Origin: Amoebophrya sp. A120
Lineage: Eukaryota; Protista; Dinoflagellata
Length of the DNA: 37,372 nucleotides
Assembly: GCA_905178155.1 (NCBI GenBank)
Contig: CAJINV010000024.1
Location: 141,601-178,972 of the forward strand
Direction: 5' to 3'
Shown here: piece by piece, positions 1 to 37,372 of the stretch
Numbering within the stretch: the first letter of the stretch is position 1
Layout of the letters: each line of letters starts with the position of its first letter
Notes under the pieces: generated by a model
Databases searched by the model: none
Told to the model about the DNA's origin: nothing
Seen by the model: the letters and a program-made list of their open reading frames with translations, nothing else
Position numbers and translations under genes: made by a program

Positions 1-526
1 CGCCGGTTTGCCGGGGCCGCCAGGTTGCTCGCAGTCCGCAGCCGAGTGTGGCGATTTGGGCACACGAGACGCCAACACAGACGCGGCGCGGTTGTGCACA
101 CAAACAGCAGCGGAGTCCATGCGCGCGCCGCGTTTTCGGTTGCATTGCAACACACTTTGGCACGAGCTAAACCGAAGGTTTCCCGGGAAACCTTAAACGA
201 CCCTGCCCGAGCGGAGTCCATTGATTTCTAGGTCTCACAGCGTCACTTTCTCTATAATATTGAGGTATAATGCCGCCCGAAGTAGAAACGCCCGGGATAT
301 CATTATCAATATGATATTAACGGCGAAATTGTCTAGCTCGTACAGGAGCGAGAAAGAAAATCGAAATGGTGCTCCTCTTTCAACAGAATAAATAACGTCA
401 CGACCTGAGTTCTTGAAAATATTCCAAGCGATGGAACCCACATCTAGCGTAGCGAGTATCTACTTAGGAGCAGGAATTCAAGACTTACATTACAACTGCA
501 GCGATTTATTTTTTTCGCCAATATAC

Positions 527-1852
527 CGTATTTCACAGGAAACTCGACGTTGTACACATCGTCCTCCTTCTGAAAGAGAAACTCAGTCGCCATCGCAAGT
601 CGGCATCTGCTATCCAATGCGCCCTGGTTCGGATTGAGAGCCATATTGACCCTCGAGAGACGAGAATCGTCGGTCGCCCGGGAGAACGCAAGCGTTTCTG
701 GTGGGGTCCATTTGACTAGCTTCGCACTGTCGGTCCCAGTCCTCCGTAGCCGGGATGCGATGCTCTTGCGGTTTTCCGGTGCGTTTTCATGAAAAAACTC
801 TAACACCTCGCGGAAAAATCCTCTATCATTTTTGTGGCATCCACTGGAGAGAGCGGTGGAGCTATATTTTCTCGGAACTACCAGCGCGCTCCCAAAGTCG
901 TATTGATAAGCAGTAGCCGGGTTGCAAGTCTCACGCGCCATTGTCATAAGCAGTCGCACCTGCATGGTGAAATTGTCGAGTGAATATCATGAGCTGGGTG
1001 TCAGACAATTGAGCCGGAGGTGCTCCACGAAGAAGTGAAAATTGGGACATTAAAAGTCGTTAAATGCCAGTGCAGTCGTATACGTAATGAAAGAATGCGC
1101 ACATGACTTACACTCCAGGGCGTCAGGTTTGGCGGAGCCGCGCTTTCCGGTCCCTCGATCATCCTCTGGAAAGACTGCAGGTGGCGTCTTCCTAGATCAA
1201 TATCTGCATTCCAATAATCTCGAGGCAGTTTGGTTCCAACTTTTTCCCGCAGCACTTCCAGAAAGAGGTCCTCGCAGCTTTCCGTTCGGTTTGCGAGTGT
1301 TCGGTCATCCGTGTTTTGTGCCAATGCCGCCACTGCTACCTTCTTCCCTTCGGCATCTTTTTGCGAATGCAATTTGCTTGCATTGAGCAATGCTCCCGCG
1401 TCCGCTGCGGACAAGAAACTCAGAATGCCCTCGTTTGCGTTTAGCTGCTGGTTACCAAACATCATCAGGGCGGGTTCGCTGCTTTTGATGTCATCGAGCA
1501 TGTTCCGGTGTTTTCGTCGACCCCCCTTGTTCCCAACTGGCTCCGCGCGACGTTGCTCTCGCAGTGCATCCTCTTTTTCCAGCAGCTCACTCTGCTGTGG
1601 TTCGCCTTTTCGCCCTGCTGCAGCAATATTTGGATTTGTAGAAGTTATTCCCACCACTCGGTCGTCCAGCTGCGGCCTCAACCGCCCCGCACATGTTTTT
1701 CTCAGCACGTTTCGCACGGTTGCAACCAGGCGGGTCCTTGCAGATATTTCAGTTTCCTCGGCCGTAGACGCTCCCGCTGTGCTTCCGCAGAAAAGAGAAA
1801 TCGCGAATAACAACAGCAGCAGCCGTTGTTTCAGCTGTTGACGAAGCCGCAT
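527..1852 (-). CDS. Secreted-protein family 1, copy A (exons 1852-1112 and 959-527; exon 3 not found in window)
   Basis: ATG at 1852 followed by a hydrophobic leader (LLLLLFAISLFCGSTAGA). Intron TGG AGT|GTAAGT...CATGCAG|GTG joins W-S to V-R-L-L-M-T-M in phase 0. Second donor TAC G|GTATAT at 526. Shares GILSFLS, SCEDL..EVLRE, P.DYW, GCH..D..FFREVL.FFH and RCR.AMATE.LFQ with the other copies. Confidence 0.8.
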
Positions 1853-2584
1853 GGTACTTTCACCGGTCTAAGTTATCTGTATCTCGCCTGTCAACATGCC
1901 CTGATGTATAATTAATAACTGGCGCTACTTGAAGCCCCGCCGCGAAACATAATTTTCCGAGCCGCAATGACACGACAGCACAAAACTAGCAGATAATTAC
2001 TTTTGGTAATATCGCTTTGTATCGCTTTGTATAGCTGGGAGAAACAGGTTGGCGCCACTGTAGAATAGAGGGGGACGGAGGTAATCAATGGAGGTGCCAA
2101 ATCCTATGGATACTAGAATCTTCAGCAGCAAGTTAATGAAGGAGCGGAAGTTGCTTTGTTTGCATTTCCATCTTTGTTGCGGTAGCAAGAATCTTGCTCT
2201 ATGTTGGTTTGTATATCGGAAATAGCTTTGTCATTCTTGGAGTGCATATTGATACTACAACCGGGACTGCCTCGAACTCCAATCGAATCGAATCTTGATT
2301 TGTTAATTTGAAGCCTTGCAATTGCCATCTCGTCTCCCACGTGTTAAATATAAATGGAAAGTTCAAAAAGCGAGCCAGGGAGAATCAACATTCAAGACAT
2401 GACGCGAAGCCGGTTCAGTTCTTGTTTGAATGTAACATCTGCGAGCGGCGTATATTTTCCTCATGGCGCTCGCGTTCGCAACTCTTCATGCCTAGCCCAG
2501 AGAGCCGTGGCAATGCGTATCCTACTGCAGCCTCTACACAGCTTTCTTTTGCAGCGTCAACGCTTTTTTCCGATGGAGTTGGAA

Positions 2585-4880
2585 CTACATCTCAGCAGCA
2601 CTAACCGGAGTGGGAATGACAACTGAAAACTCGCTCGGATTTGCGGCCAAAATACGTGGCGGCCTGCGATCGTCCATACGTCGGGTGTCATAATAGGAAG
2701 TGTTCTGTAGCCGTGCGGCATGATGGCTTCGCCAGTCCCATTGGAATTGATCGTACGACCAACGCAGGCTGACGCCGTCTGATTCTGTTCGCCACCGTCG
2801 CTCATAAGTGCGAAAAAGTCTCCGAAAAGATGTATACCAAGCTGCGTCAATGGGGTCTTGTCTGGAATAGTCGTCTTCGACGTCTGATACGTTCGCGTCC
2901 GGATCCGAATTTAGGCAGTAACCTGAGGTGACCATCAAAACTATTGAATTTACTGACTTTTTGCGTCATGCAGATTTTCATCGCATACTTACCACTCTGC
3001 AACGATCAACATGAAGCCATGTCGCATTTGCACACGTCGGTCGGCGCGATGAGGGAATTGTTCATAGGAGTAATCAAAAGAAAATGCACTTGAAATGATA
3101 AATCACCAGTGAGGTGGCATTTTTCCTAGCCGTTTAGGGTGGGGGATGAAGATAGTGAGCGAGCAAACAAATAGATACCATGCTTCACGAAGAAAAAGGG
3201 TGTGTCGTAGACAACCGCGTGTCTCTGAAAGAGGAGCTCCGTTGCCATTGCAAGTCGACATCTGCTATCCAAGAGGCCCCGATTGGGATTGCTCGCGATT
3301 GCCCGCGCAGCCAAAGTTCCATTGAATCCATTGGTCTCCTGCGGGGGATTCCAAATTACAACATGCTTTCCCTTCTCAGACGTACGATCCGACCGTGAAA
3401 CTTCCGCGTGGAAAAAGTCCAAAACCTCGCGGAAAAAATCCCGGTCACCCGCATGGCAACCCTTTTGAAGGTTCTCCGACGCGTACCTATCCTGCAATAT
3501 CGCGGTTTCGTTTTCGCTGGTGCTGTAGGATCTGAGGGGACTGCAGGTCTCGGCCGCCATCGACATCAACAACAGTACCTGTTCAAATTTCAGATTTGGA
3601 ACGTGTGGCTTTTTCAGACAAAATATGGCGCTATCCCGTATCTAGTACAGTGTAAATTATGGGAGAATTATTCAATTCTGCTTCTATCAAGTGGATAAGA
3701 TATAACCTTCGATCACGTGCAACAAACTGGTAAGTACGCTCCAGTCGGTCTCGCCGGCAGTCTGTTTCCTTCTTCTCGGCGAGTCCAGACGGCACTGGAA
3801 CTTCGCCAAGAAATCAGAATGCCCATCGACCTGGGGGTTCCAGTAGTCCCGCGGCTTCTTCGTCCCGACTCGCTCGCGCAGAACCTCCAGCCACAGGTCC
3901 TCGCAGCTTTCCGCGCGGTTTTCCAGCTTGCTGTCGTGTCTGTATTGTTCCCACGCAGCAGCTTTCACGCTGTTGTTCTCGCTTGCATTAGATGTGGACG
4001 GCGCACCGCGATCTTCTTGTTCAACATCGTCCGTGTGCTTTTTACTCGTCTGCAGCACAGCAACCGCTTCTTTCGGGGAGAGAAAGCTCAAAATACCGTC
4101 TTTTTCGTGTAGGAGCGAAGTTCTCGTAGAATTTCCTGACAGCAGAAGGCCCCGCTCCCTGAGGGTCGGCTGACCGAGCAAACCTGTGTTGCTTACAGGG
4201 TTCGAAGCCTTGCGCCCTTTCTGACCCATCATGGTTCGAGGACAGGCCACAAGATCACCAGATGATGAATCCCTTGTACCCTCATTCGCCACGGTTTTTT
4301 CTGTTCTTGGCATAACTGCATCCCCATCCGCGCCTTCTACAGGTTGTGTAGCTTCGCTGCTTGTCGAAAAATCATGGCTTTTTGATGATGTAGAAAAAAT
4401 TTCGGAGGTCTCAGGCCCGGGTATCATACTAACGAAACTAGTAGCAGGAGCAGTGCGGCTCCACTTCCGCCCACCAGTGCTGCAGCCAGGCTTGCTCGTA
4501 TTCCCAGCCTGGCTGTCTCGGCTTTCTGAGCAGCTGTGTCCTGCATTTCTTTGCTCCGGACCCACAGTTCTTTGTCGCAGTTCAGTTCGCCGTTCCTCCC
4601 CGCCGCGTTCCGCAACGGGTCCCCCAACTGCACCTTCAACCTTGTCCTGTTTCGGCCTTCGCCGCCTCGAGCACGTCTTTTGCAGTATGGCGTCTCGCAC
4701 GGTGGCCAAAAAATGCCTGCCCGAAGAATGATGTGGCTTTGCCGTAGCAAAAGCTGACGGTGGAAGGACTGCGCGCGTCCCGGCCAGTTGTCCAGACGCC
4801 ACAGCTTCCGCCCTAATTTCAGTTTCTAACGCACGTAGACAATTGGAAAACAGCAACAGAAGTTGTCGGCGAAAACGCAT
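2585..4880 (-). CDS. Secreted-protein family 1, copy B (exons 4880-3738, 3578-3179, 2922-2585)
   Basis: GT-AG introns at the same positions and phases as the paralogues (DWS|VLLLMSM; VKHG|YCL). Exon 3 carries SDGVSLRWSYDQFQWDWR. The leader is shorter and a weaker signal-peptide candidate. Confidence 0.85.
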
Positions 4881-5733
4881 TTTGGAGTTTTCTTTGTTCG
4901 CCCTGTCTTGAGAAAAGGTAGGAAAGCTGTCCTCTCGTGGTGGTGCTTACTAGCACTAGCCACAGGCCGGCACTTCTAGACCAGTGAATAGTACAATTAC
5001 GAACAAATCATGGAGATAACGTTCAGACACCTCTACACAGACTACCACTATCCTACAACAAATTCTGTTCTAAAAAGTTAAAGTGGCGGTATTACAGCGA
5101 AACATAATTTTTACACAGGTGCCGCTGCAGGAGGAAAGAGGAGGGCTTTTTCGAGGACGAGGACCCTTCATTTTTGAATCAAGGCTTAGTCCAGATGGCA
5201 TACTTACTCCACGTTGACCCACTAGTACTAAGGTGCACCATACTTTTCTCCATGTTTTCATCTCAATCATTCTGCTTATTCTCAGAAGAATAATTATTAT
5301 AATTCTGGCCAATGACAGTGCGCCTGCGCACGTGCATAAGAGGATCGTACAGGAGGCACGAGGATCTTGAATTCCCATGGGAGCCTCATAAATTCATACA
5401 TTTTACCCGTCCTGGCCTGCCAACCATCTCCGGACCACGACCCCGCCATTGTCGTGTCTTGCGAGTATGCATTTCGACCCCAGTAGCTCGTAGGACACGA
5501 GGACACGAACTAGGTCCTTCACTGCCGAAGGACATTGCTCAGCCCCTCCTGCTGAACAAAAACTGAACTATCTTGAGATTTGTAGCATAAGCGTTAGCCT
5601 TGGTTATTGACCAGTTCCATTTCGCCGGCAAGACTATACCACGGAATCCTACATTTACAAAAGCGCACTCTGCTAAAAAAATAGGATATTTTTCATCGTA
5701 CATTCCATATCGTATTCAAGCCTGCACCCCACA

Positions 5734-8700
5734 TCAGCTTCGCTCCTGAGACTCGTTTGCGATGTCGTCGATTTTGGAAGGATAAAAGACCAGATATCGT
5801 TTCGGACTGTTAGTGAGCCTTTTCGGCACAAGTGGCGCGCCTCTATCTAAAAGCTTTTCGTATGATCCGCGATCCCTCAATCGCTGTGCATGGAGGCTTC
5901 GCCAGTCCCACTGAAGTTGGTCGTACGACCAACGGAGCCCTACACCATCGGAGCCACTCCGCCACTTCTTTGCAAATTTCCGAAACATTTTTCGGAAAAA
6001 TGGGTACCAGTTTTCGTCTAGCGGTTCCCTTCTAACTGGCGTTACCCAGAGACGTGGGTCGGTAGCATTTATCAATTCTGGGTTCAGGCAGTAACCTGTA
6101 TTGTTTATGGATATGTTGCCCTTCGAATTAGTTTTAGACACAAATAAAGGTCTACCTCGTCGAGGTAGACCAGTCGAACAAGAATAGCACGGCTCGCACC
6201 ATCGCTCGGCCAGGTGCTCAAGCCACAGCGATTCAGAACCAAAACGAAGCCAGGCATAGTCGGAGAGGAGGAGCAAATAAGATAAGCCTCAAGGGGAAGG
6301 GTTGGGTACACAGGATAGCTAGTTTCACATGGGAATAAGTGCGCGGCCTGCTGTAGTGTGGGTATATCGATATCCACGTACGTCCAGTAGGCAGCCGTAA
6401 CGGACACATTCCCATCACTCAACGAAGACACACGCATTTATCGACTTACCGTGCTTCACCGGAAATGGCAGCGTGTTGCACACAAGATCATAGTTCTGAA
6501 ACAGAAACTCCGTTGCCATAGCCACACGGCACCTTCGATCCAAAATCAACGGATTTGGATTCCGCGCCATGTTCACTTTCCTAGCGAAGTCAGACGGAGA
6601 AACAGGGAGGCCTTCCGACGCCTTCCAGCTCTTCCTGTAAAAAGCGTGCGCGACCGGTGGGTTCCAAACTACCACATGTCGCACCGAAACAGCTGCAGTC
6701 TGAGTTTTTTTGCTTCTATCCACCGTTGCACTTCGGGTCGCAGATGATTCTTCGTGGAAAAAATCCAGAACCTCGCGAAAAAATGCCTTGTCGCTTTTGT
6801 GGCACCCTTTTCGAAGCTTGTCCGAGTCGTAGGTCGGCAAGATGGAAAGGCCCACACTGCCTGCAGTTTCGTACAACGTGGCCGGATTGCACGTCTCCCT
6901 AACCATGGTCATCAGAAATCGCACCTGAAACAGAAGGTTAGAGTTGAAATTTTACAGATGCATAGATAGTATCTATTCAAAGGNNNNNNNNNNNNNNNNN
7001 NNNNNNNNNNNNNNNNNNNNNNNNNNNNNNNNNNNNNNNNNNNNNNNNNNNNNNNNNNNNNNNNNNNNNNNNNNNNNNNNNNNNNNNNNNNNNNNNNNNN
7101 NNNNNNNNNNNNNNNNNNNNNNNNNNNNNNNNNNNNNNNNNNNNNNNNNNNNNNNNNNNNNNNNNNNNNNNNNNNNNNNNNNNNNNNNNNNNNNNNNNNN
7201 NNNNNNNNNNNNNNNNNNNNNNNNNNNNNNNNNNNNNNNNNNNNNNNNNNNNNNNNNNNNNNNNNNNNNNNNNNNNNNNNNNNNNNNNNNNNNNNNNNNN
7301 NNNNNNNNNNNNNNNNNNNNNNNNNNNNNNNNNNNNNNNNNNNNNNNNNNNNNNNNNNNNNNNNNNNNNNNNNNNNNNNNNNNNNNNNNNNNNNNNNNNN
7401 NNNNNNNNNNNNNNNNNNNNNNNNNNNNNNNNNNNNNNNNNNNNNNNNNNNNNNNNNNNNNNNNNNNNNNNNNNNNNNNNNNNNNNNNNNNNNNNNNNNN
7501 NNNNNNNNNNNNNNNNNNNNNNNNNNNNNNNNNNNNNNNNNNNNNNNNNNNNNNNNNNNNNNNNNNNNNNNNNNNNNNNNNNNNNNNNNNNNNNNNNNNN
7601 NNNNNNNNNNNNNNNNNNNNNNNNNNNNNNNNNNNNNNNNNNNNNNNNNNNNNNNNNNNNNNNNNNNNNNNNNNNNNNNNNNNNNNNNNNNNNNNNNNNN
7701 NNNNNNNNNNNNNNNNNNNNNNNNNNNNNNNNNNNNNNNNNNNNNNNNNNNNNNNNNNNNNNNNNNNNNNNNNNNNNNNNNNNNNNNNNNNNNNNNNNNN
7801 NNNNNNNNNNNNNNNNNNNNNNNNNNNNNNNNNNNNNNNNNNNNNNNNNNNNNNNNNNNNNNNNNNNNNNNNNNNNNNNNNNNNNNNNNNNNNNNNNNNN
7901 NNNNNNNNNNNNNNNNNNNNNNNNNNNNNNNNNNNNNNNNNNNNNNNNNCTAACCATGGTCATCAGAAATCGTACCTGAAACAGAAGGTTAGAGTTGAAA
8001 TTTTACAGATGCATAGATAGTATCTATTCAAAGGGCAAGCGCTAGTAACGCACAGGCAGTGGCAGCCAGTGAAGTGAGTCTGAGTGCATTGCCGACACGA
8101 TCGCACCACCTTCGCCTTGCGTTGAGAATAATCGCGCGCAAGTGGCAACGGCAGGCGAGCGAAAAAAAACGGAGCTGAAGGGAAACATATCAATAAATGT
8201 GCTGGCTCTACAAAAGGGCAGTACACTCCAATCCGTAGCGGCCGCAGAAGTTCGTTTGCCACCCTCTGCTCGAGATACTTCAACTTCAGATTGGTATTTT
8301 TGTAAATAATCCCTGCCCAAGTCCACAGTGTCGCTCCAATAGTCAATAGGCATTTTTGTGCCCAATCGCTCCCGCAAAACCTCTATGTAGAGGTCTTCAC
8401 AGCTATCCGCTCGCTCTTCTAGTGCTCTACCCAGAGTCTTCTGGGCGCGGGCGGCTGCAGCAAGTTGCGCACCGGTTGCGTCTGCTTCCGAATTCGGCTT
8501 GGCAGTTCCCAACAATGCAGCTGCGTCCCCAGCGGATAAGAAGCTCAAAATGCCGTTCTGCTCATTCAAAAAACCCGTTGGTCCAGAGAGAAGTAGCCCC
8601 GGCTGTACGCGTTTGATATCGGTCAAAAGATCCCTACGCACTTCCGGTACGGCAACGGGTTGCTTCATTCTGACGGGCCTGTCCTCCCGTTGTAAGGCCT

Positions 8701-9418
8701 CTACCTGCATTCCAGCGTAATTTTGTTTTTCCTTCGGTAATGAATCGGCTCTGTTCAGCTTTATCTTCACCCCCGCCCGGCTTCCTACGTTAGCAGCACG
8801 GCTTGCCGACTCGCTGTCGCTCTCTTGCCCCGTCCGGATCTCCGTGCCTCCACTCGTAGTTCCACTTGATGAGGCGCCATCGTTTCCGAATGTCGGAACG
8901 AAACCTCGACGCCGGGTCTCTTGCGGCGGGCCCGGTATCATCCGAATAAAGTTGTCACCGGCGGAAGCCTGAGTCGCAATATTTTTCGCGCCCCTGCGAT
9001 AAGATGCGCCCCTTCTGTCCTCGACAATGCCCTCGTCGATCGCTTGGTCGGGCTCCGGGCGACGTTCCTCTCGCAGTCCATCCTCTTTTTGCAGCTCACT
9101 CGGCTGTGGCGTTCCTCGTCGCCCTCCTGCAGAAATATTTGGACTTGTAGAAGATATCGCCGCCCCTCGCCCTCGGTCCTGCTGCGGCCTCAAGCGCCCG
9201 GCGCAGGTTTTTCTCAGTACGTGTCGCACTGTTTGAACCAGGCGGGCTCTTGTAGAACAAATTTCAATATTCTCAGCAGCAGATGGAGCTGGAACAGCTG
9301 TATCGGACGTTTCGGAAGCTGCAGCCGCTGCTTGTACTCCTCTACTCGTTGTACTAGCGTGGGAAAGGGAAAACCAAGAGAACAGCAAGAACTGCTGCAG
9401 GTGTTGACGATGCCGCAT
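5734..9418 (-). CDS. Secreted-protein family 1, copy C (exons 9418-8225, 6924[or 7975]-6450, 6095-5734), spanning the N gap
   Basis: ATG at 9418 (MRHRQHLQQFLLFSWFSLSHAS). Donors at 8224 and 6449, acceptors at 7976/6925 and 6096. Same conserved motifs as the other copies. Could be parts of two tandem copies if the gap is real. Confidence 0.75.
6984..7949. other. Assembly gap (966 N), flanked by a duplicated 85-bp sequence
   Basis: 6899-6983 equals 7950-8034 except for one base (gcacctg vs gtacctg). Confidence 0.95.
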
Positions 9419-9640
9419 TGTGCTTTCGACAGTGTAACTTTTCCTTCTCCCACCTTCTCGTAGGCTGATGGGGAAGCAAGAACTCACTCGCGCTTCCTAG
9501 TGACGTAAGTACTCAGGAGCACCACTTCTACCGTGAAAAAAACACTCTAGTATCACAACATCAATCATACAATTTGTCTACTAGCCGCGAGAAATTAATG
9601 CGTCGGCGCCGCTGGTGGAGAAGAAAAGGGGGTGAAGAAC

Positions 9641-9682
9641 TATGGCCCCCTCAAAACGTAAGTTCTCAACTCGTAAGTGCGC
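9641..9682 (+). repeat. Left terminal inverted repeat, perfect 42-bp core
   Basis: Exact reverse complement of 18906-18947. Confidence 0.95.
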
Positions 9683-12600
9683 TACCCATAAAAATCGCGA
9701 CAATTTCGCGACTTTTTTGGATGGTGCACTTTTTGCAAAGTTTTTCCGATTTTTGGTTTTTTTCGGACAAGTTGCCTGCCTGGACTTGTCTTCACGAGAG
9801 ACGCCGGCGCGCCATTTTGCAAACCCGCTGCCCCATTTTTTTTATGTGTGAGGAGCAGTAGGGCCCGACGCACGTTGACCCGAGCGCGGCAAGCTTACGA
9901 AGAACACGCGCTGGACCGCAGCGGCGGGAAGCTTGCACTGCCATGCTTCGCCGCAACATCTAAAGACGGCCACTGGGCCGGGCATAACGTCACGCGCGAG
10001 GGTATGGAGCACATGGGAAATCATCAAAAAGCTGCGGGCGCTTGATGCCTTCGCACATCCCCCCGGCCGGTCGCAGGGCGCGCGCCACAGCCTTCAGACA
10101 TGACTTATTTTGCGCCCGTCATCTCTGACACCATCAGGCAGGTTTCGCCGCGATTCTCTTGCGCCGCCCCGCCCTCCCCACAATGCCGCGGGCGCCATTG
10201 CTACGCCACGCATCGGGCACGCGACACTCACTGCGCCCGCCCAACCGGGACGCGGCCTGCCGCAGCGATGGGCCGGCCTCGCGCGGGAGAAAAACCGCGC
10301 GCCCGCCTGCCCGCAATCGCGCACAAGGCATCCCGTGGGGCCCCAATCGTCCAGCCCCCCCTTTGGCGCGCCGACTCCCTGAAACGGAGCACGGAAGCTA
10401 GCAACCGCCCCGGGCAAGCATATGCTCATCAGGCCGAAGCCACCGCGCCACAGTTCGACCGACCGCCCAGGCGGGCTTTCGCTACTTAGGGCCGGCGAAT
10501 CATTGAACCAACGGCGGGCCGGGCCCGGCGAAGCGCTTCCATCGCACACGCGCCGTCCGCTTGCAATTAAAAGGTAAGCAAAAGAAAAGGGCCGCGCAGG
10601 GCGGCCCTTGTTTTGCATGTGCAGACAAACATGCCCGCGCGCATAAACCAGAGAAAGCTGCACCCCCCGGGAGCCTACGCCAGCGGGAAGTGGGCGCGCC
10701 GGCCCTGCGTCGAGCGCTCTAGCTACCTACCTGGCGGCAGCAGCTAGGCAACACCGAACCGGCGCCCGCGGACATACAACTCTACCGCCCGACCAGGGGC
10801 GGCCGAGCGCCATAGGGGGGGGTCGGTCCGTCAGCCTGGGGCGCCCCTCTCCCATTCTTCAGTGCCCCGGTCCGCTCGGCTTCTTTTTTCTTGCATCGGC
10901 ACCCCGGCCCACCCCCGCTCGTTGCCTCCTCTCGAAAATACCGGCACATGCTGGGCCGCCCGCATGCGCATCGCGGCCCGGGCGCAACCGGCCCGGCGAA
11001 AATGCGCGTGAGGCTTGCCGCCACCCAGTCGGGACGATGGCCGCCCCAATGCGCACGCTGCGCACCCCCCGGCCGCGAGCCCGCCCCAGGAGTAGCCCGC
11101 AACGCGCCGCCAAGGCTTTGGCGCCCGCGCGCCCGCGTGCAAGACGCCTCGCCGCTCGTCTGCCCGCCGGCCGGGCCAATGGGCCGGCCCGGTTGCCCGG
11201 GGCATGTGCCGGCCCTGCCCCGTGCTGCCCGTTGCGCAGCCAGCGGGGCCAGCCGGCGGGCCGCGCAAATAAAACGAAGGAGGCCAGAGCAGCCCGCGCC
11301 CCGCCCCTCCGACTCCGCTCCCGATTCGCGCAGGGCGCGTAAAGACAAAAGAAGCAGGGGTTGGCGGCTGGCCGACCCACCCTTGGCGAAGGTCGGCTCT
11401 TCGTTTGCGGGGAGGGGGCCCATGCAAGCCGGCCGCCCGGTGGCCGTCAAACAAACAACGAGCAAGGGGGCCGGCCGCGCGCATTGATTAGCTTGCCGGA
11501 TGACCGCACGGGCCACGGCCACACACACTGTAGCTGGCATCGGGCTAGCCAGGCGCCGCGGCCGCTCTTTGGGGGGCCATCCCACCAGCTGCCGGGCAGC
11601 CTCGGAGGCCGGGAAAGGATGGCGGGAGGGTGGGGCGGAAGCGGCGCCGGCCGGCTTCGATCGTGCGTTTCGCTCGACACCAACTGGCGGGGCCGGTTCG
11701 CGCGGGGGCCTTCGGCCCTCCCCAAGGCAAGGAAGGGCGATCAGCCGCCGCGCGGGAGCCTTTAGGGGAGGACGGGCAGCCGCGGCGCCGGGGGGCCCTT
11801 GCATATTCGCGGCACGCGCGCGGCCCCTTTTTTAGTTGTCTACAGGAAGCGCGCTAGGTTGTAAAAATATTTTCACAGGGCGGGGGCGCGCTTATTGCCG
11901 GCGGAGCAACCTTCACAGGGCGCGCGTTGTTTGTGCGAATAGTGTTACCGGGCGCGCGCTGTTTGTAAAAAAATTTTTACAACTATACCAGCCGGGCCGG
12001 CGTACCCCTGGGTAGCAAATGGGCCAGCGGCGCGGCTTTTCTTGCAAAAACCGGCCCAGAGGGCGGGACGGGGGGGGGCGGGCGGCAAGCCGGCCACCGG
12101 CCGGCCTACCTCTGGGTGGCCGCCTTGCTTGAAGTAAGGCGGCCTAAGATGGCAGCAGGGGGCCACCAGCGAGCACGCTCTGGGGTAGGTGGATAGCTGC
12201 GCGGCGGGCCCGCGCGCTTGCTGCTGGCAGCTGTGTGCGCCTATACCAAACCGGCCCCCCATCTGTGCGGCGCCCTTCCTACCTTGGGTAGCCGCGAGGC
12301 CAGCCCGGACGCAGCCTGCGGCCCGCCTTCGCTCGCCCGCGGGCCGCCGACGTGCGTCGCGCGTCTTTGTATGTGGGCTGGCCTTGTTGCCGCCTTTTGG
12401 GCCACTTGTTGTGGGGGCGGGCGACATGCACGCGCCCGCACGCTCGCAACTGGCCTACAGGATACACACAATGGGCCCCCCCGCCCCCCAACTGCAGGCG
12501 GGGCCCACGCGCCGTAGGCGGTGCACCGGCGCGGCTCGCAGCCATGCACCGGGCCGAGCACAGTAGCCGGCCCCCCAAGCCCGCCCGCCCGCGCTTCCTG

Positions 12601-13615
12601 GACTGGCCAACAGGGTGCGCCAGCGGCCATGCCTCGCTTATGTAGAAGCCGCCCGGGGAAGGCGGGCGGGGGAGCTAGCTAGGCGGGCCCGCTGCGTCTG
12701 GCCCGGCTGGCCAGCAAGCAGGTGGCGCTCCGACAGTTCCCCGCGTTGTGTGGGCCAGTTGCAAGCGCGGGCTGGCACGCAGTTGGCCCGCAGGCGCCTT
12801 GCGGTGAGCCGGCCGGGCAATTACCGGGGGCACCTACGTAAGCAGCGCGGTCGCGGGGCCACCCCAGCTAGCTAGGGAGCTGATTTGCGGCCGGGCCCCC
12901 CAGTTCCTTGGCCCGTGTAGATTGGCGGCCCCGGCCGGCGGGCTGCCTGTCGCGCCCCGGCCCGGCCCAGCTCCAGCGCGGGGCTTTGCCAGAGTGCCTG
13001 CGGCCCGGCCGCTCCCCATCAACCCCCGCGAAGCCGTCGGCATCCCAACTGCGTGGGCCAGGGGGCGGCGATGTCTTCTAGGCGGTGGGCGGTGGGCGGC
13101 CCACAAGGGCCCGTTGCTCCCGGCCCACATTTTTCCACCCCAACAAGGCGCACCGGCCGCCCGTTTCTAGCGGCCGGCCGACGAACTTGTGGCCCCGCTG
13201 TGCGCGCCCGCATGTCGCTGGCCCAGCACATACATTACGAAATGCCGCCAGCCGGCTAGGCCCGTCGCGGTTTGAGCGCCCTTGTCAGCTGCGCGCGTCG
13301 TGCTGGCGCTGTGCCAGCTACACGGACCGACGGCACGGGAATGGGCTGCAGGCATGCAGCAAATGGGGGCCAATACCTTGCGGCGCCGACCCTTTGTTGG
13401 GGCGGCCCCGGTTCGTTGGCACACGGGCCCCCCGCCGGCCCGCCGCGTGTAGCGTGTTGGCGAACTATGGAGACCGGCCCTCTTCCGCTAGAAGACCAGC
13501 GAAAAGGTAGGGCAAGCCTCAGACGGCCCGCTTGCCTGCAGATCTCCCACCCCCAACCAGTCTGCCGGCGCCACGTTTGCTTCGCGGGCGTGCGTGGCTC
13601 CGCTACATGCGGCAG

Positions 13616-14142
13616 CACCTAATGGGGCCGCCGCCCATGCAGCTCTCGACAGCAAGCGCGCCGCCTCACTCCCCGGCAAACTGCGGCCCGTTGGCCGCTG
13701 CGAGCGCGTAAAATGGGAAGCCTGCGCCAGCGATGGGGGCCAACCATATGCGCCCCGCGCGCCCGCGTGCGAGTTCCTGGAGCCGACGGGCCGCCCGGCC
13801 TGCTGGCAGGCTCGGTTTACGGTTCCCAACTTGCCCCGCGGGCGCCTGCGTGCATGCAGCTGGGCCGGCCGCCCGCGGCGGGGCCCCCGCCGGCTGGCAG
13901 GGATAGCAGGCTGGCCCCGCGGGGCAAGTTGGGAACCGTAAACCCAGCCTGCCAGCAGGCCGGGCGGCCCGTCGGCTCCAGGAACAAACTCGCACGCGGG
14001 CGCGCGGGGCGCATATGGTTGGCCCCCATCGCTGGCGCCGGCTTTCCATTTTACGCGCAGCGGCCAACGGGCCGCAGTTTGCCGGGGAGTGAGACGGCGC
14101 GCTTGCTGTGGAGAGCTGCATGGGCGGCGGCCCCACTAGGTG
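13616..14142. repeat. Nested near-perfect inverted repeat (about 227-bp arms: 13616-13842 and 13916-14142)
   Basis: For example ggtttacggttcccaacttgccccgcggg / cccgcggggcaagttgggaaccgtaaacc, with only a few substitutions and small indels. Confidence 0.9.
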
Positions 14143-14225
14143 TTTGCTGTTTTTGGGAAATTTCGCAACCTTTTCTGGATTTGTTCTGGAAAAAGTTGCG
14201 AAATTTCTCGAAGCGCTAGCGCTCT

Positions 14226-14340
14226 CGAAAATTTGTGTGGAGCGCACTTACGAGTTGAGAAAAATGCAGCATTTCAATCGAATCCCCGATGGTGTGCTGC
14301 ACTTTTCTCAACTCGTAAGTGCGCTCCAGACAAATTTTCG
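14226..14340. repeat. Central hairpin (46-bp arms, 2 mismatches, 23-nt spacer) containing the element's terminal motif
   Basis: cgaaaatttgtgtggagcgcacttacgagttgagaaaaatgcagca (14226-14271) versus 14295-14340. Confidence 0.92.
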
Positions 14341-16601
14341 CTAGTGGTGTGAATCTGTGTGGTGCGCACTTACGAGTTGAGGGCCTGCAACTTTCCCGAG
14401 ATGTGTGTTTGTCGACGACAAACATAAACCTCGAGAAAAATTGGAAATCACGGCCGTGAGATGCTTCTGCGGTTGAGCTGGCGCGCGCAATCGCAGAAAC
14501 ACGGGCGCGCAACGCGGGCGTCAAGCTGGGCGCCGGCCCCCTATAGCTGACGGACGGCCCAGCACAATGCCTGCGTCGCACCCAGTCGGCCCAAGGGAGC
14601 AGCGCGATGCGCGGCCGATTCCGACCGGCCTCATGCGGGCCTCTATGGTTGCTGCGCGAACTCCGCGAAGATGGATGGCGAGCCCCGGCCCGTCTAGTTG
14701 GCGGGAGGGCTGCCCGCATGCAGTTGCGGGGGGGGCCACGCACGTGTGGGCGCACGCACCTGGCCCCGGGCACATGGTTGGGGCCCGGGTGGGCTTCATC
14801 ATGGGCGGGCCAGGTATGAAGGTAAGGTGGCCCGCATAGCAGGCGGGCGCGCTTTGGCCGATTTTCCATCTGCTCTCTGATTCTTGTCCGCCGACGGACG
14901 GACGCTGTGTGTGGGGAGGGAGGCCAACTACATGCGGGGGGGGGGGGGGCGGCGCTTAGTTGTTTCTAGCTGTGCTGGGATCTGCCGGCGGGCTTTGGCG
15001 GGTAGTCTAATGCTGGGGCGGGCCGCATTTCCTTGGCTAACCCAAGCGGCCGGGCGCCCTGGTATTGACCCGCCACCCGTTTGCCCGCCGGATGTGGCCT
15101 CATAGTTGGCGGACTGGACATACGCGCCGCGCTTCAATACTTCGCGGCCGCGCCACCCACGTGCAACCGGCTGGCCAGCTACATGCAGGCACACAACGGG
15201 CCGGGGGGGCGCTCGCAACGAGCGGAGCGGCTGCCGCGTTGGATGGCGGGGCCACCCAAAAGCGTGGCGCTCGCATGCGGCTGGGCCACTTAGTTGGACC
15301 GCCAGACGGATAGAGCTGGCCCCTGCGATTAGTGGTGGGCCCGTCATCAAATAGAGCGAAGGGGCCAGCTTTTGTCGCCGACTTGCCGGCGCACCCACGC
15401 TGCCCCCCGCCCCTCGTGGCCACATGCCCCCCAGGCCGGCGCCGCCCTCCTTGCTGGCCCACTACATGTGGGGCGTGAGTACTCGGCTCATGTGCCCGAA
15501 CGGCCCGCGCGCGCCCCGCCGCCTACTCATGCAGGTTCGTTGGGGGCTGGGAGGCGGCCGACCAGGTGGGGGCCCCGTGCACCAGCGGCCAGCGACCTCC
15601 ACCAGGCGTGGGAACCTGGCCCAAACACATAGCGTGGGGGATCTCCGTTGCGCGGTCCGCCTGTGTTCGGGCCCCACACACTCGCGCCACCGCCCCGCGC
15701 GGCGGACCGACCTACCCTGCCCAGCCAAGCAATTGGCCGCCCATCATGAGCAGCCGGCCGGCCCACTCGCTCCACGTAGCTGCCCGGCTTGCTGCAGGCA
15801 TGCGGGCGCGCGCGCCAAGCCGGCCCAAGGGGCGCGAGGGTTTGCCGGCGTGGGCCCGCTGCGTCCGAGGTCAAGTTAAGTCAGTGACCCGGCCTCCCCG
15901 CCGGCGCGCGCCCGCGCGCACGGACATAGCCTGTTGGCCAGCCGCAGCAGCTTGAGCAGGCGCGCAGGCGAATGCGGCTACCCCCAAGCGCGTGGGCCCG
16001 CGGGGCAAAATACGGCCCCCCCCCGAGCCAGGGGGCCGGCGGGTAATGGCACGGCGCCCAGGCGGTGGGCCAGCCCCCCCGCCCAAAATCGTTGGCGTTT
16101 CTCCGCTAGCCAGGTTGCTGCCTGGGAGGGGCGTCATTGGTGGTGGGCCCACCGCTTTTGGATCAGGAAGAGCACGCCGGCAGCTGGCCCTCGGATAGAT
16201 TCGCCGCGGGGCGCAGCGCCCTCCCCCCGCTGAGGTGGGCGAGCGGCACGCGCGCCATCCAAATGAAGCATCCCTGCTAGCCTGCCAGCCGGCGGGCCCC
16301 CCCGGGGGGCCGGCCCGGCTCAGCTGCATGCCGGCGGGCTGGCCCCAAATCTTGTCGGGGAAGGGCAGGACATAGAGGGGAGGCGGCTTCATGTGAGCGC
16401 ACGCAGGAAGCAGCTCCAAGCATGCGGGCCGCGCAACTTTAAATCCCCAAGCGCGTTGGCCCCCACCTTACCGCCACCCCGGGCCAGAGGCCGGCCAGCG
16501 GCTTACCGCCCCCCCCTCCGCCCCGCCCGCCCGGCGGGCGTCTATGGGAAAGGCCGCGGCGCCGGCCCGTTTGCCATGGGCCCTCCGGCCCGGCTGGTCT
16601 G

Positions 16602-16700
16602 TTTGTAAAAAAAATTTAACAAGTAGCGCGCTACATTGTAAAAAAAATTTTACAAGTAGCGCGCTACTTATAAAATTTTTTTTACAAATAGCAAGCGCGC
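16602..16700. repeat. AT-rich tandem palindromic mini-array (ttgtaaaaaaaattttacaa + gtagcgcgctac, about 3 units), with a degenerate mirror copy at about 11850-11985
   Basis: Directly visible as an AT island inside the GC-rich arms. Confidence 0.8.
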
Positions 16701-18905
16701 TCCCTATGGAAGTGCTTTGCCACGGACGTTAGCCGGCGCCCCGGCCCCACTTGTTGGCAAATAATGGAAGAACCACGCACGGGCCGCGAATTGATACGCA
16801 AGTAGGGCCCCGCCCCCCCGCGCGGCCGGCGAGTGCCAGCCTTCAGAGAGACGGGGCGCCCGCTTGGTGGTGGCCCTTCTCTTTGCGAAGGCTCCCGCGC
16901 AAGCCGACCCCCCCCCTCGTCTGTCGGTGTCGGAAGGAACGAAGCCGGCCGGCGCCGCCCCCCACCGGCCTGCTAGACTGCCCCGGCCCCGCGCGCACGC
17001 TTCCCTGCTGCCCGGCCAACCTGCCCGCCGGCCCCCCCCTCGCTCGCCCCAAGCCTGCCCCGGCCTACAACTTGGGGGGCCCACTTGGTGCCATTCAACA
17101 AGCTATCTAATGCACGCGGCCGGCGCCGGCCTTGCTTGTCGGTCGCCGGCCGCCGGCCGGCTCGAATGAATCGACTCCCCCCCCCCCGCAAAGGCAGAGC
17201 CAGTAAGTGCCAAGGGCCGGGCGGCCACCAACCTCTGCCGTTTTTTGCGCGCTCTGTCTGCGCGAAGCGGAAATGAATTGGCGGGGCGTGGGTTGTTCTC
17301 GCCTCCTTTGCTTTGCTCGGCCGGCTACCCAGCCCCGCCGCTGCTCAACGGGCGGCGGGCGCGGGGCAGTGCCGGCACATGTCGCCCCCTGCCGCCAGCT
17401 CGGGCCATGCACTCGCCCGGCCGACCGGCCAAGCGCCTCCCTTGCACACGGGCGGGCGGGCGCCAAAGGCTTGGCGGCGCGCGCGCTGCGGGCTGCGCCC
17501 GGGCCGGGCGCGCGGCCGGGGGTTGCGCATTGGGGCGGCAAGCGCCCGCCCCGGCTCGGTGGTGGCGTTGCGCACAATGCCGCCGGGCCGGTTGCGCCGA
17601 GCCGAGATGCGCCCGGCCCAGTGTTTGTCTTGGTTTATTTTCAAGAAGAACGAAGCAACAACTGGGGGCGGGCCAGGATGAAAAGACGGGCCGCGCCCGG
17701 AGAGTCGCCTTGCGGTGCGGGGCGCGGAGAGAATGGCTGGGGGTGGTCGCCCAAGGCTGGCGGACCCACCGGCCCCGCTCGAGGCGCTCTGCCGCCCCAC
17801 CCTTGGTGGGCGGGCGGTAGGGCTGCATGCCCGCGGGCGCCGGTTCGGTTCCACCTAGCTACTTCCGGGGGAGGCAGGTCTTTGCAGGGCGGGCGCGCCT
17901 ACTCCTTGCGGACGCGCCCGGGGGGCGCAACCCTCTTTGGTTTGTTGTATGCGGGTCGGACAAGGGTGCCCGCACTTGGTTGAAGGTAACTAAACGCCGG
18001 CCCGCGCGACCCGGTTTGCTTTGCCTGCCTCCTTGAGTGCGGTGCGTGTGCTTTGAAAGCTCGCCGCCAGACCCGGCCCACCGCTTATTGGCTCGCCGGC
18101 CCCAAGTAGCGCAGGCCCGCCCGGTCGGCCGCACTGTGGCGCGGCGACTGCGACGCGACATCGATGCCCGGGGCAGTTCGTCCTTTTGTGGGAGCGGGGC
18201 CAAGGGGGGGCGCTGAGCGATTGGGGCCGCACGGGATGCATTGTTCGCGACCGATTGTGGAGACGCGGGCGTGCGGTTTTTTTCGCACGCGAGGCCCTTT
18301 TCTTACTTCCGTAGACCGCGCCCCGGCTGAGGGCACTGGACGTGTGCCCAGTGGTGTAGCAAGGGTGCCCACGGTGTTTCTGGGAGGGCGGGCGCACGTG
18401 GGTGAAGGCGGAACGGGCCGGATGGCGTCAGGGATCGATCGATGGTGGGCGCGAAATGGTCCCCGCCCATATTTTTGAAGGGTGTGGCGCGCTCCTTGCG
18501 AACAGCCCAGTGGAAGCGCGAAGGCATCAAACGCCCGCAAATTTTTGCTAATTCCCCACGTGCGCCACGCCCTCGCGCGTAACTAACGTTATCGCCGGCG
18601 CCATGGCCGCCCCTAGATGTTGGGGCGGAGCATGGCGGGAAAACCGGCCCGCCGCTGCGGCCCGGCGCGTGTTCTTCGTAGGCTTGCCATGTTCGGGTCA
18701 GCGTCAGCCCAAGCTCCTCTCTCACGCAGGAAAAAAATTATGCGGGAGTGGGTTTGCAAAATGGCGCGCCGGCGTCTGTCTCGCGTTGGTTCGCGAAGAC
18801 GCGTCCAAGTGGGCAATTTTTCCGAAAAAAATAAAAAACAGGACAAACTTTGCAAAAAGCGCACCACGCAAAAAAGCCGCGAAATTCTTGCGAATTTTAT
18901 GGGTG

Positions 18906-18947
18906 GCGCACTTACGAGTTGAGAACTTACGTTTTGAGGGGGCCATA
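18906..18947 (-). repeat. Right terminal inverted repeat, perfect 42-bp core
   Basis: Exact reverse complement of 9641-9682. Confidence 0.95.
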
Positions 18948-20666
18948 AGAACAATAAAGGAGCTCGTATCTCCTGTGGATACCAGAATCTTCAACATCAA
19001 GTGAGATCGCACACTGCTCAGGGGTTATACTTCTTAATGAACGAGCCAAAGTTGCTTTGTTTGCATTGATTTCCATCTCTGTCTAACTTTGGTCTAATAT
19101 TATGGCTGTGTGTGCATAATTAGATATCCAAGACGAGGCTTCGTCATCCGAGAACTCTATATTAGTAATCTTTGGACTTGCTTATGTGTTAAAGTAATGC
19201 TGGATCCCATCACTGTGGTGTGGTCATCACACTTACAAGACTTAGATCCGACTAACCATTTTTCAAGGAAGTGGTGGCCCCTTCTGGTGACTGACAGGTC
19301 TCTACTGGGTACTGTGGATAATGATCAACAACACTTCTGCTCCGGTTTTTAGACGAGAACTGGAAGGACGACGGACTTTTGAACAACAAAAACTTCTCCA
19401 GGAGTGAAACTCAACGACAGCTGGAACAAGCCGCTCCTCGCCTTTATTTCGATCACCCGGGAGTCCAAGCTGGGAGGCGGCAGGTGTTCGGCTACTGGGG
19501 CTTTTGACGTTGTCTTACCTTGCCTCGCAGTAGCGGGTTGTCACTCTTGATCATGGAAACTGAAATCGTACATACCCTTCGACCATTCGGGCGCCATCTA
19601 CGTTCTTTCCACCTCTCAAAACAACAACAAGATCAGCTATATGCGCTACTTGGTTTACCAAACTTCATATGTTCTTTTTTACTTTTGTTCGTTAACTTGT
19701 ACTCTTAATCCACCTTTTTTACTTTTACTCAACTTTTACTCTTTCAGGAGGAAAGAACTGCACCAACACGTGGATACAGTTGTACTGCTACATGTAAATC
19801 CTACAATTCTTCACTCTACAACGCTGGAGGTGTAGTGTCCTTGAAGTACAGACCTTTTCAGATGTGCCATAGTGCTTGATGCGAGTACTCCATGTATAAT
19901 TAAATAAGGTTGTGGCTACTTCTACTTGAAAAAAACATACTCTTTTGCTCGTCGCAAAATCTTTCTGCTAGTCCCAAAAAATACGCCAGTCAAGGACCGG
20001 ATCCCACCGTTTCCGTTCCACACAGCTTTTTTACATCAGTCGGTATGATGCTAGATCTCGTCGAACTAAGTACTCGTTTCAAACTTCAATAGGTAAACAG
20101 ATACTTCTTCATCAGGTACGGCGCGCGTGTCTCGGATGTCCCTCCCAGTAACAAAACAAGACAGCAATGGACATCATCTGGACAGGAGCACTACTTTACT
20201 CGTCAAACCAAACGCACGGGATCACAATCATATTTTCATACATCATATCAGCCCACTTCTACAGGTCTGATTTTGTTTTTGAGTCATTGTGGCGGCTTAA
20301 AATGTTGAAAAAGAGACACTACATAGCCTATCACTAAACCCAACCTAAGGACGAAGGCTTCACTGTGTGTCTCAAAAAATTTGAACTGATACTACTTCTT
20401 TACTATAATGATCAGGCTACTTCTTACTTTACTGTAATTCGTCTGCTGCTTTACATACAGCAGTTCCACTAGATGCACTTGCATTTCCAAGCAGGTTTGT
20501 TGCGCTGCGAGACTACGCGCAGCAACAACGAGACTCGCGCAAAGATCGTTCGTTAGCATTTTCCATACAACCGAGAACTCCTCTTTTTAATACTCAAGTC
20601 GTAGCCCGACCTCATCAATCTTTCCGTCGTCTACTGCCACTCCTCACCAATTCTTGAGCTCCTTCG

Positions 20667-30890: not shown

Positions 30891-32871
30891 CTAGAACTCG
30901 TAATCGATCTTCGATGGCCGCGAAACGAGATAACGTTCTGGATTGTCCGCCAACATTTTCGGGAGAGGAGCTGCGCGTCGACCTGGAATTTTCCGGTACT
31001 TCGGAAGATTTCGGAGACGCTTGGCATGGAATGTCCTCCAATCCCACTGAAACTGATCATATGACCAGCGCAAATCCAATCCGTCAGATCCTGCGCGCCA
31101 CTTGCGCGCAAATTTGCGAAATAGCTTGCGGAAAAACGGGTACCAATTTTCGTCTAAAGGGTCCTTGCTGACAAACTCGTTCCACCTGAAGCTATCCTCC
31201 TCCAATTTTGGGCTGAGGCAGTAACCTGTAGAAAAAATTATTAAATGTTCATTCTTTGTAGCTGACACACATTGAATTGAGAAAGCCAAATCTTTGAAAC
31301 ACAAAACGCTTCTTGCCCGAAGTCGTAACTGTATCAAGGTGAGTACACCTGATGCTGATTCGAAATACTTCCTTATTAAAGTAAGTACCATGCTTCAGGG
31401 GAAATTTCATCGTCCGGTAAAAATGACGATAGTTTTGGAAAAGCAACTCCGTTGCCATTCCAAGCCGGCAACGCGATTCTAGTACCCCACGGTGTCGTCG
31501 GTTCCGGGCCATATTCACAGGCCTTGCGAAGTCAGCCGGAACGACCGGGAGTCCATCTTCCGGCTTGCTATTTTCCTCGAAGAATGCATGTGCCACCGGA
31601 GCATTCCAAACCACAACACTTCTGTCCCGCCTCGCTGATTTTCGGGGCCGGCTGACCCTGGCACTGCGGGTCGTGCTGATGGGCAAAGTCGACTCGTGAA
31701 AAAAGTCAAGCACTTCACGAAAAAAAGCTTTGTCGCTTTTGTGGCATCCCGCCTCCAGTTTTTCAGAACTATACACAGGAGGAATGTCCAGCGACACAGA
31801 GCCAGAGGTCTCGTACGCCGTTGCGGGATTGCACGTCTCTCTCACCATGGTCATGAGGAATCGTACCTGAGATGTGTTGATTGAGCTCTCGACGATGCAA
31901 TAATAAAAGTGAGTGCTCCTGTTGACGCCTTGGAGAAAAACGAGCGATCAACTTTTCGAAGGATGGCAGTATACACGCAAAGTTGATGATCAAGCAGAGA
32001 TACAGGTCGTGACAGACTAGGCGCAAGTCATTTTTTTACGCACACCTTCCATTCTTTGGAAGCATATTATGTCCACGTAATTTTTAATCGGTTGCGCGTG
32101 GAGGTCAAGGTCTGCAAATCGCGTATATTAAAAAGTACTTCCTAGTGCTGTTTAAGTAGTGAATGAGTACTAGTTTCTCAAACGTCGCACTTCCTCTTCC
32201 TTCGAAAAAAATATTGGTATAATTACGCTCCAGTCCGTTTCATCCGGCGCAACCCGTTTCCCGCCCTCTTCTCGCGGTCTCTCAACTTGTTCTTGGAATT
32301 TTTGCAAATAGTCTGCTCCCAAATCCACAGTTGTGTTCCAGTAATCGCGCGGCATCCTTTTGCCTACTCTTTCGCGGAGAACATCCAAGTAGAGGTCTTC
32401 GCAGCTGGCCGTGCGGCTTTCGAGGGACCTGCCCTCTTCTTGTTGCGCTTGCGCAGTGGCAGCAATCTTTGCTCCAAGTGCGTCTGCTTGAGAGGTCCCC
32501 TTGCTCGTTTGCAGAATCGCGGCTGCATCGCTCGTAGACAGGAAGCTGAGAATTCCGCTGTTCTCATTCAAGAGGCCGGTATGCCCAGACAGTAGTATAC
32601 CAGGTTCAACGTCCTTGATGTCGCCTAAAAGATTTCTTGTGCGGTGTGACGACTCGGCGAAAGCCGGGCACGGGCTACCCGGGTGCTCATCTCCACGTTT
32701 GCACGGATGTCCCGCTGATGCCTCCAGATGACTGCGCTCCCCCCGCGAAGACGAGGAGGAATTCGCTTTGTTGCGAATGCTTTGGTCGTCGACTGCAACC
32801 GCGTATACGCTGTTCAACAATCCACATAAAAGGAGGCACAGAGCCCCCACGTTTTCGCGTCGAGCGTTCAT
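30891..32871 (-). CDS. Secreted-protein family 1, copy D (exons 32871-32227, 31866-31389, 31225-30891)
   Basis: Leader ALCLLLCGLLNSVYAVA. Conserved intron positions (DWS|VRFLMTM; KHG|YCL). Closest to copy C in exons 2-3 (PLDENWYPFFRK.FRKFA.KWR.GSDG). Confidence 0.85.
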
Positions 32872-36730: not shown

Positions 36731-36739
36731 AATAGACAT

Positions 36740-36985
36740 TCTTTCGCAAACCATTTGCGAAAGATTTTTTGCGAAAGATTTTTTGCGAAAGATTTGCGAA
36801 ATATTTCGCAAAAAGCTTGCGAAAAAAATCGCAAAAGCGAAGGCGGGAACTTTTACTCAGGTAAGACCATACCATGCAGATTGGGCTATTTTCCTTGCCA
36901 CTTTTTTGCGCCTGGACGGGCGCCAAAAAAATCTATTTCAAATCTATTCCGGATCTATTTTCAATCTATTTTGAATCTATTTTGA
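36740..36985. repeat. AT-rich hinge: tttgcgaaa micro-repeats and five 11-bp-period atctatt repeats
   Basis: atctatt starts at 36931, 36942, 36953, 36964 and 36975. Confidence 0.85.
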
Positions 36986-37157
36986 CGGAGGCCAGACAAG
37001 CAAAGTTCTTCCCTTGTTCGCCTGGCCATTTTTTCAGGCAAGAGCAGCTCGCTTTGCAAGTGCCGCGCCATGCTCTCACCGGGGCCGAAGATCTGCCGGC
37101 CCCGGTATGAGCATAGCGTGGCGCCTGTGCTTCAAGATCTATCATCTCCCTCGCCTG

Positions 37158-37372
37158 ACCACCTCCTCAGGCCAGGACATTTTCGCACCCCAAGCACCAC
37201 GCTGCTCTCTTACCTGGCCCAAAAATTTGGCAGGCCAGGTAAGAGAGTGCCGTGGTGCTTGGGCCAACTTTTTTTCGGCTGGCGCGACCTTTTTTCCTTC
37301 CAAGCGCCATGCTATGCTCTTACCTGGCCTCAAACTCTCGAGGCCCAGGTAAGAGCACAGCAGGGCGATTGT
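37158..37372 (-). repeat. Same satellite in inverted orientation, running off the window end
   Basis: Reverse complement of the unit at about 36150-36362 (aggccaggacattttcgcaccccaagcaccacgctgctctcttacctgg). Confidence 0.9.

Follow-up and report, generated by a model that had tools for sequence, protein, structure and literature searches.

The stretch of DNA analysed here, called the window below, comprises 37 372 nucleotides of the dinoflagellate Amoebophrya sp. A120 (assembly GCA_905178155.1, contig CAJINV010000024.1, positions 141 601 to 178 972). It carries a noncoding foldback element of 9307 bp (9641–18947; 68% GC versus 50% in the flank), in which a motif present at both ends recurs head to head at the centre. 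The explanation that we favour, with a probability of about one half, is that of a gene-less 9.3-kb foldback element with ends like those of IS3EU and GingerRoot, whose centre consists of tip-less binding sites that stem from an old doubling and have been kept for the pairing of the ends. The kind of element is already known, a foldback transposon with IS3EU-like ends; what is new is the presence of AT palindromes at the midpoints of its halves, which divide it into four near-equal segments.

The element begins with TATGG at 9641 and ends with CCATA at 18943–18947. Its left end (9641–9682, plus strand) and right end (18906–18947, minus strand) are perfectly identical over 42 bp, up to the last base of a 20-mer and not beyond. 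Each end consists, from the outside inwards, of the tip, a variant of the motif (9650–9662 and 18926–18938) and the 20-mer itself. The pentamer AGAAC stands on both sides as a target-site duplication (9636–9640 and 18948–18952, plus strand). A 2-bp duplication, TA or AT, was also weighed; the 5-bp match and the loose contig ends at 18947 favour AGAAC. A paralogous intergenic region in the same window (2026–2250) is uninterrupted at the site of the element. The left flank aligns weakly to 2026–2074 and the right flank clearly to 2083–2250, and the blocks matched by the two flanks are 8 nt apart, as read from the alignments, both at the element site and in the paralogue, which indicates a clean insertion. 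Two short-read contigs depart from the element at 18947; we read the blended consensus as showing the left end of this very copy in one of them and a different insertion in the other. The element is thus very probably a non-autonomous transposon with terminal inverted repeats (TIRs) that moves as a whole.

There are four exact copies of the 20-mer, two at the ends (9663–9682, plus strand; 18906–18925, minus strand) and two at the centre (14242–14261, minus strand; 14305–14324, plus strand). A third central copy, with 18 of 18 letters of the core, lies at 14364–14381 (minus strand). All these positions and strands, including those of the 18-nt copy, had been given correctly by the first-pass annotation, which was made from the letters of the window. 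No further copy with five or fewer mismatches is present in the 37-kb window, and the number of exact copies expected in the element by chance is 3e-9 under an order-2 Markov model. The degenerate core CTCAANNCGTAAG has seven sites versus 0.42 expected, a number reached by none of 100 shuffles; there are seven because each terminus also bears the second, tandem variant (9650, 18926), just outside the 20-mer. In metagenome contigs the 18-mer has 15 single-copy matches, none of them with a second motif or wider similarity, and these are therefore attributed to chance. Viral contigs contain no match to the 18-mer, and prokaryote genomes none to the 28-nt terminal tandem.

The two exact central copies form a hairpin (14226–14340) with an imperfect loop around 14283. 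The axis had been placed near the midpoint of the element, as is indeed the case (14283 versus 14294). On one side of it lies an AT-rich hairpin with a second end-like motif of the AATTTCGCRACTTTTT type (14155–14210), and on the other a small AT-rich hairpin that ends the central block (14392–14438). Folding of the region 14140–14450 gives a z-score of −12.6. The distance from motif to tip is 22 bp at both ends of the element, and the gap between the two central copies is 43 bp, close to the length of two tips abutted end to end (2 × 22). The tips themselves are missing. In the 22 bp outward of the three central copies, only 2, 2 and 8 of 22 positions are identical to the true tip, and neither a TAYGG tip nor the outer tandem site is found at the centre. 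Some likeness to the ends persists inward of the central copies, including a second AATTTCGC-type motif; the end-likeness scores are reached by 0 of 500 shuffles for L versus C1, 2 for L versus C2, 3 for R versus C1 and 45 for R versus C2.

Judged from its sequence, the centre resembles a place where two ends were once joined and which has since decayed, with the binding site kept and the cut site lost. The proposal of the first-pass annotation that the motif is a selected protein-binding site gains support from the end identity that stops at the last base of the motif and from central copies that retain the motif without the tip. Its description of each half as bounded by inverted motifs holds for the inner motif and fails for complete ends, the tip being absent from the centre.

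The central copies might, however, be a relic without function that dates from the doubling, in which case self-correction of the hairpin and occasional gene conversion from the ends would have kept them alike. The central stem is matched beyond the motif as well (47 of 58 positions, ungapped), and local fold-back copying does occur in the element (13616–14142), two points in its favour. We consider it rather unlikely nonetheless, as identity to the ends is exact for the motif and broken at both of its edges (2/22 outward). The break falls on the same base where the identity of the left and right ends stops, the third copy is again intact, and there is no reason for conversion tracts to heed the edges of a motif.

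The left long arm (9641–12360, plus strand) is a degenerate inverted copy of the right long arm (16200–18947, minus strand), the inner limits of both being approximate. Mirror identity is about 87% at the ends and fades inwards until it is undetectable by about 2.7 kb; at aligned positions the arms are about 80% identical. The outer two segments are clear homologues, with significant mirror homology in all 11 outer-quarter blocks, versus three of 11 inner-quarter blocks (p about 0.01). Two of these three blocks lie beside a quarter site, and the other, isolated and weak, further in; the inner quarters can be aligned at the central stem and along some 400 bp adjoining the quarter site. The arms, described earlier as highly diverged, are indeed far from identical, with the qualification that they can be aligned, over the outer 2.7 kb or so only. 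The homology that fades inwards, together with a central gap of the size of two abutted tips, supports an origin of the element as an inverted dimer, as far as this can be read from sequence. A tandem dimer was ruled out, since Q1 versus Q3 and Q2 versus Q4 give no alignment. Alignment also ruled out that each half is a detectable palindrome.

An origin without doubling would involve TIRs of 2.5–2.7 kb around an unrelated middle of 4 kb, in which extra binding sites were gained and their central place was set by selection on spacing. This would account for inner quarters that are mostly unalignable, and extra transposase sites are known inside foldback elements, according to the accessible description of Galileo (PMC4079207). 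It is unlikely to be correct: the central gap equals two tip lengths, end-like sequence runs on inward of the central copies, and the homology decays smoothly, without the sharp edge of a TIR.

AT palindromes of the TTGTAAAAAAATTTTTACAA type start at 11859, 11963, 16603, 16636 and 16668. The left group spans 11859–11982, with the main copy at 11963–11982; the right group spans 16599–16691 and consists of three copies in a hairpin, the first at 16603–16622. There are nine matches over both strands, one of them (with three mismatches) outside the element, and none in 100 shuffles. The palindromes at 11963 and 16603 lie no more than 11 and 3 bp, respectively, from the midpoints of the left and right halves (11962 and 16615), and the segments between motif and palindrome measure 2310, 2289, 2308 and 2313 bp. 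The chance of a site lying this near the midpoint of a half, with neither shared origin nor selection, is estimated at roughly 0.5% (21/4600), for a pair that was picked among five palindromes and whose fit is thus partly post hoc. The indels of the outer arms amount to a net −7 bp, against a standard deviation of about 38 bp for random signs. A shared origin could therefore give equal segment lengths without selection, a point in favour of the relic described above.

Structure beyond that due to composition is restricted to few places: five of 46 folding windows have a z-score below −3, all of them at the centre or beside the quarter sites. With a median z of −0.4, a generally structured single strand is ruled out. 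An origin-like GC skew is also excluded, there being no switch at the quarter sites (|z|<2).

The contigs of four of the 11 listed runs, which consist of short-read contigs or RNA reads, were compared with the window over 13880–19700. Two runs of one sample, which contain most of the sequence words, are probably the source. No reads of the RNA run X6 could be placed, which is no evidence on transcription either way. In run X1, 102 contigs were placed, of which 45 are 99% alike or more, 16 are 95–99%, 22 are 90–95% and 19 are less than 90% alike. Every one of the 30 bins into which the right 5.8 kb was divided is covered, and 57 of the 102 contigs are under 99% alike. The depth of exact X1 contigs is 30–44; the summed depth, which is no measure of copy number, reaches 241. 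Other copies are much closer to the same arm (80–99%) than the left arm is to the right. This likeness is our main argument that the whole element of 9.3 kb, rather than the half, would be the copied unit, and it argues for the same reason against halves that are being resolved and re-doubled. Pieces of the element are also found in two plankton metagenome studies; one covers 14361–14657 with eight differing letters and no gaps, and another covers 17699–17929 with 0 differing letters.

One contig spans 14230–14510, with only two differing letters, both in the loop, and is the sole contig over the axis; it may represent this copy, or a merge with a close copy. A second variant contig (depth 88) has deletions of 12 nt and 1 nt between the second and third motif copies. 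In another contig, the central block is joined at 14143 to GC-rich DNA absent from the window. Assemblers are confused by long inverted repeats, and the window does contain an N gap (6984–7949). The chance that the element is an assembly artefact is nevertheless extremely small, given that the arms are diverged rather than identical, that the centre is bridged by the contig over the axis and that a contig from an independent study covers 14361–14657. The contig over the axis probably comes from the source sample, however, and so is not independent.

Two further observations concern the right side of the element. A metagenome contig of run X4 (18869–18952) tracks the right end through the five positions of the duplication and then diverges, which may reflect either an overrun of the alignment or a target preference. 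The right flank (18950–19700) is multi-copy too in run X1, with a summed depth of 93–188 versus about 42 for exact contigs.

The fold-back copying mentioned above has left a recent internal foldback of about 527 bp (13616–14142), near-perfect, with arms of about 260 bp around an axis at 13879 and pieces that are 91–97% complementary. It is a candidate template-switch event. The length of its segment is still near 2.3 kb, and it seems to have replaced the original DNA. As another copy has different DNA to the left of 14143, the foldback seems to be particular to this copy. A joint from 14142 to 16585 was considered as a deletion form and rejected, since its depth of 44 and its 47-nt side fit the copy's own left-half contig, which apparently aligned there by way of the internal foldback and the mirror arm.

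The first-pass annotation also suggested that the halves might move independently. The element would then be a composite whose halves transpose alone, like the LTDR modules of KolobokP, for which solo modules with their own duplications are described (PMC9587614). As in KolobokP, copies of end sequences are found internally and modules are bounded by inverted repeats, here by the inverted motifs around each half. The modules of KolobokP, however, are direct repeats with complete ends, at least in the accessible account (PMC9587614), whereas the halves of the present element are inverted and lack the inner tip. The comparison of loose ends took in 18 of the 53 (six of them from X1), and a further 265 differences lay beyond the comparison. 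Among these 18 there is no solo half of 4.6 kb with its own duplication, and among the six X1 loose ends listed there is none at 14262–14304; one contig runs over the axis. With a centre that has neither the TAYGG tip nor the outer tandem site, independently mobile halves are not supported, and we regard them as highly improbable.

A resolvable junction at the centre, on which a tyrosine recombinase or an enzyme of the protelomerase type would act, was another suggestion. After excision, the circle would carry head-to-head motif pairs at two opposite points, with the AT sites at 90 degrees to them, as would a circular dimer formed from a hairpin-ended replicon of 4.6 kb whose origin is central. 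The geometry fits, with motif pairs at the centre and at the left–right junction and AT palindromes at the half midpoints. Moreover, an internal telRL-like site has been described, in the accessible part of the report, for an integrated eukaryotic element, the Ectocarpus giant virus (PMC13236599). Like telRL in phage N15 and in the Ectocarpus endogenous virus EVEc, the central hairpin is an internal inverted repeat in an integrated element; telRL is, however, centred on a 6-bp palindrome and its resolvase is encoded by the element (PMC13236599). No 6-bp palindrome lies at the present axis, where there are only off-axis 4-bp palindromes (14279 and 14299), no resolvase is encoded in the element, and none of the 30 open reading frames (ORFs) of the window scanned with Pfam is a recombinase. 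The loop differs at two positions in the contig over the axis, GC skew does not switch at the quarter sites, and the 5-bp duplication and the TAYGG tips point to a DDE enzyme. Dimers that are replicated, resolved and re-dimerised would have identical arms; those observed are far from it and unalignable inside. Present-day resolution by a protelomerase-type enzyme is therefore not supported, and action of any such enzyme at the centre seems very unlikely.

The element has no recognizable gene. Of 40 Markov controls, 29 contain a reading frame at least as long as its longest one (349 aa), and the indels that separate the two arms show no bias to multiples of three (31 of 143). The Pfam scan of the 30 ORFs gave one weak match, outside the element, and none for the nine ORFs of the element itself; an Rfam scan gave no match. 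A scan for sigma-70 promoters and terminators was also negative, with models that are bacterial in kind and not relevant to a eukaryote.

The termini agree with those of known DDE transposons, as far as the accessible descriptions go. IS3EU has TAYGG..CCRTA ends (PMC12730594), and TA..TA ends are common to IS3EU and GingerRoot, whose duplications are usually of 6 bp (PMC10045372, PMC6839031). The TATGG..CCATA ends of the present element fit these (see also the Styx preprint, 10.1101/2023.03.29.534637), as do its perfect 42-bp ends the TIRs of more than 30 bp, and its 9.3 kb the size range of GingerRoot (3.9–12.9 kb). It differs from both in having no transposase and in its degenerate arms of kilobase length, versus TIRs of 36–150 bp, and the accessible descriptions make no mention of central or quarter-point sites. 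Because of the ends and the duplication, a DDE transposase acting in trans is likely to move the element. The element would thus work like IS3EU; we do not file it there, in view of the 5-bp duplication and of a transposase that is presumed from the ends and the duplication. Polinton/Maverick elements, with AG.. termini and genes for an integrase and a polymerase, were ruled out by the TA..TA ends and the absence of genes.

With the foldback class (FB, Galileo, Tetris; PMC4079207) the element shares very long TIRs, a target duplication, a noncoding middle, a non-autonomous character and extra presumed transposase sites inside. In the accessible account of that class the extra sites are tandem repeats within the TIRs (PMC4079207). 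Here the arms are non-repetitive, the extra sites stand head to head at the centre, and there are four equal segments. A modular TIR with an outer tandem-repeat domain is not present; the sole tandem in the element is 33 bp × 2.2 at 16603. In the Tetrahymena rDNA palindrome, too, a large mirror duplication is centred on a short inverted repeat with a spacer, but this palindrome arises, as cited at second hand in PMC3734650, by a developmental amplification and has identical arms; the present element is old, diverged and integrated, with a target duplication.

The history that we propose for the element begins with a progenitor of 4.6 kb that would have become a head-to-head double, either through fold-back, at an end or, as known for Tetrahymena rDNA, at a short inverted repeat, or through a double insertion with abutted ends. 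Inverted tandem insertions are known but rare in Drosophila, on the available account (PMC5932611). Fold-back at an end, or abutment of ends, would yield the central spacing of 2 × 22 bp. The inner tips would have decayed later, so that the element is no longer cut in two, and the arms would then have diverged, least near the ends. A trans-acting DDE transposase would bind the motif, at two sites per end and three at the centre, and that the motif has been kept exactly suggests continued binding of the end-binding protein at the centre. The symmetric centre and the quarter sites could form a scaffold that unites ends 9.3 kb apart. Such a role in end pairing is the most plausible use of the centre, by analogy with the extra sites of Galileo (PMC4079207) and with the strong gyrase site of phage Mu, which lies exactly in the middle of a long DNA that transposes and is required in that place for end pairing (PMC10052514). 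The Mu site is acted upon by host gyrase and is unrelated to the Mu ends, at least in the accessible text (PMC10052514), whereas the central site described here copies the element's own end motif.

A bolder version is also conceivable, although we doubt it. The element would be a self-organising scaffold, with one protein at the ends and the centre, a second factor at the quarter palindromes and 2.3-kb segments selected to be equal. The excised circle would have two junctions opposite each other, and the central one could be processed into an extrachromosomal form, hairpin-ended or of half size.

Several points weigh against the doubling and the role in end pairing that we favour. The inner quarters are mostly unalignable, with a global score of −45 versus −92 ± 31 for block-permuted sequences (maximum −28), and the two quarters within each half give no alignment (0 of 22 blocks at p<0.05); the doubling is therefore deduced from geometry. 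The matches in spacing (22 and 43 bp) were spotted post hoc. The coverage of the hairpin axis by one contig limits what can be said about the conservation of the motif pair. The duplication is 5 bp, and would count as 6 bp only with the terminal A taken as shared, versus the usual 6 bp of IS3EU and GingerRoot in the accessible descriptions, and it comes from one insertion with both flanks. No transposase was found in the element, so its binding and its superfamily are presumed, and the argument for the scaffold is one of analogy.

Elsewhere in the window there is a second foldback-like element (33900–37372), composed of tandem hairpin units with periods of 110, 130, 240 and 355 bp. The units switch orientation near 36700–37050, and the right end lies beyond the window. 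The motif of its left end, AATAGAT (33907, 33918), recurs as five inverted copies at 36931–36981, beside AT-rich TTTGCGAAAGATTT repeats (36754–36795). The theme of an end motif that recurs near a switch of orientation is repeated here, which hints at a design shared in this genome. On the minus strand of 444–9487 and 30891–32871, genes with several exons form a tandem family; their starts resemble signal peptides, and a GILSFLS...EDLYLEVLRER...DYW block is common to them. The family matches no convincing Pfam family, and protein searches with the flanking ORFs gave no homologues. The N gap (966 N) lies between near-identical direct repeats of 85 bp (6899–8034), which are likely to be an assembly overlap.

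No transposon whose end motifs are paired in the middle and which also bears palindromes at the quarter points was found described in the literature open to search, outside which lie most subscription papers and the Repbase reports. The accessible parts of PMC7789003, its supplement and PMC12005148 do not mention an element of this kind.

The pairing of transposon ends many kilobases apart has, to our knowledge, been solved for phage Mu, and not for long eukaryotic elements. In the present element, four segments are equal within 1% despite heavy divergence by indels, which makes the question of end pairing testable through single sites. If the centre is a mere relic, the element is a non-autonomous foldback transposon of the ordinary sort, albeit one whose history is unusual. 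If the self-organising scaffold is real, Amoebophrya would harbour a eukaryotic transposon whose built-in geometry controls the pairing of its ends and whose life includes a second stage resembling that of a replicon. On the reading that we favour, the element would record a route to giant foldbacks, by mirror doubling of a whole element and loss of its inner tips.
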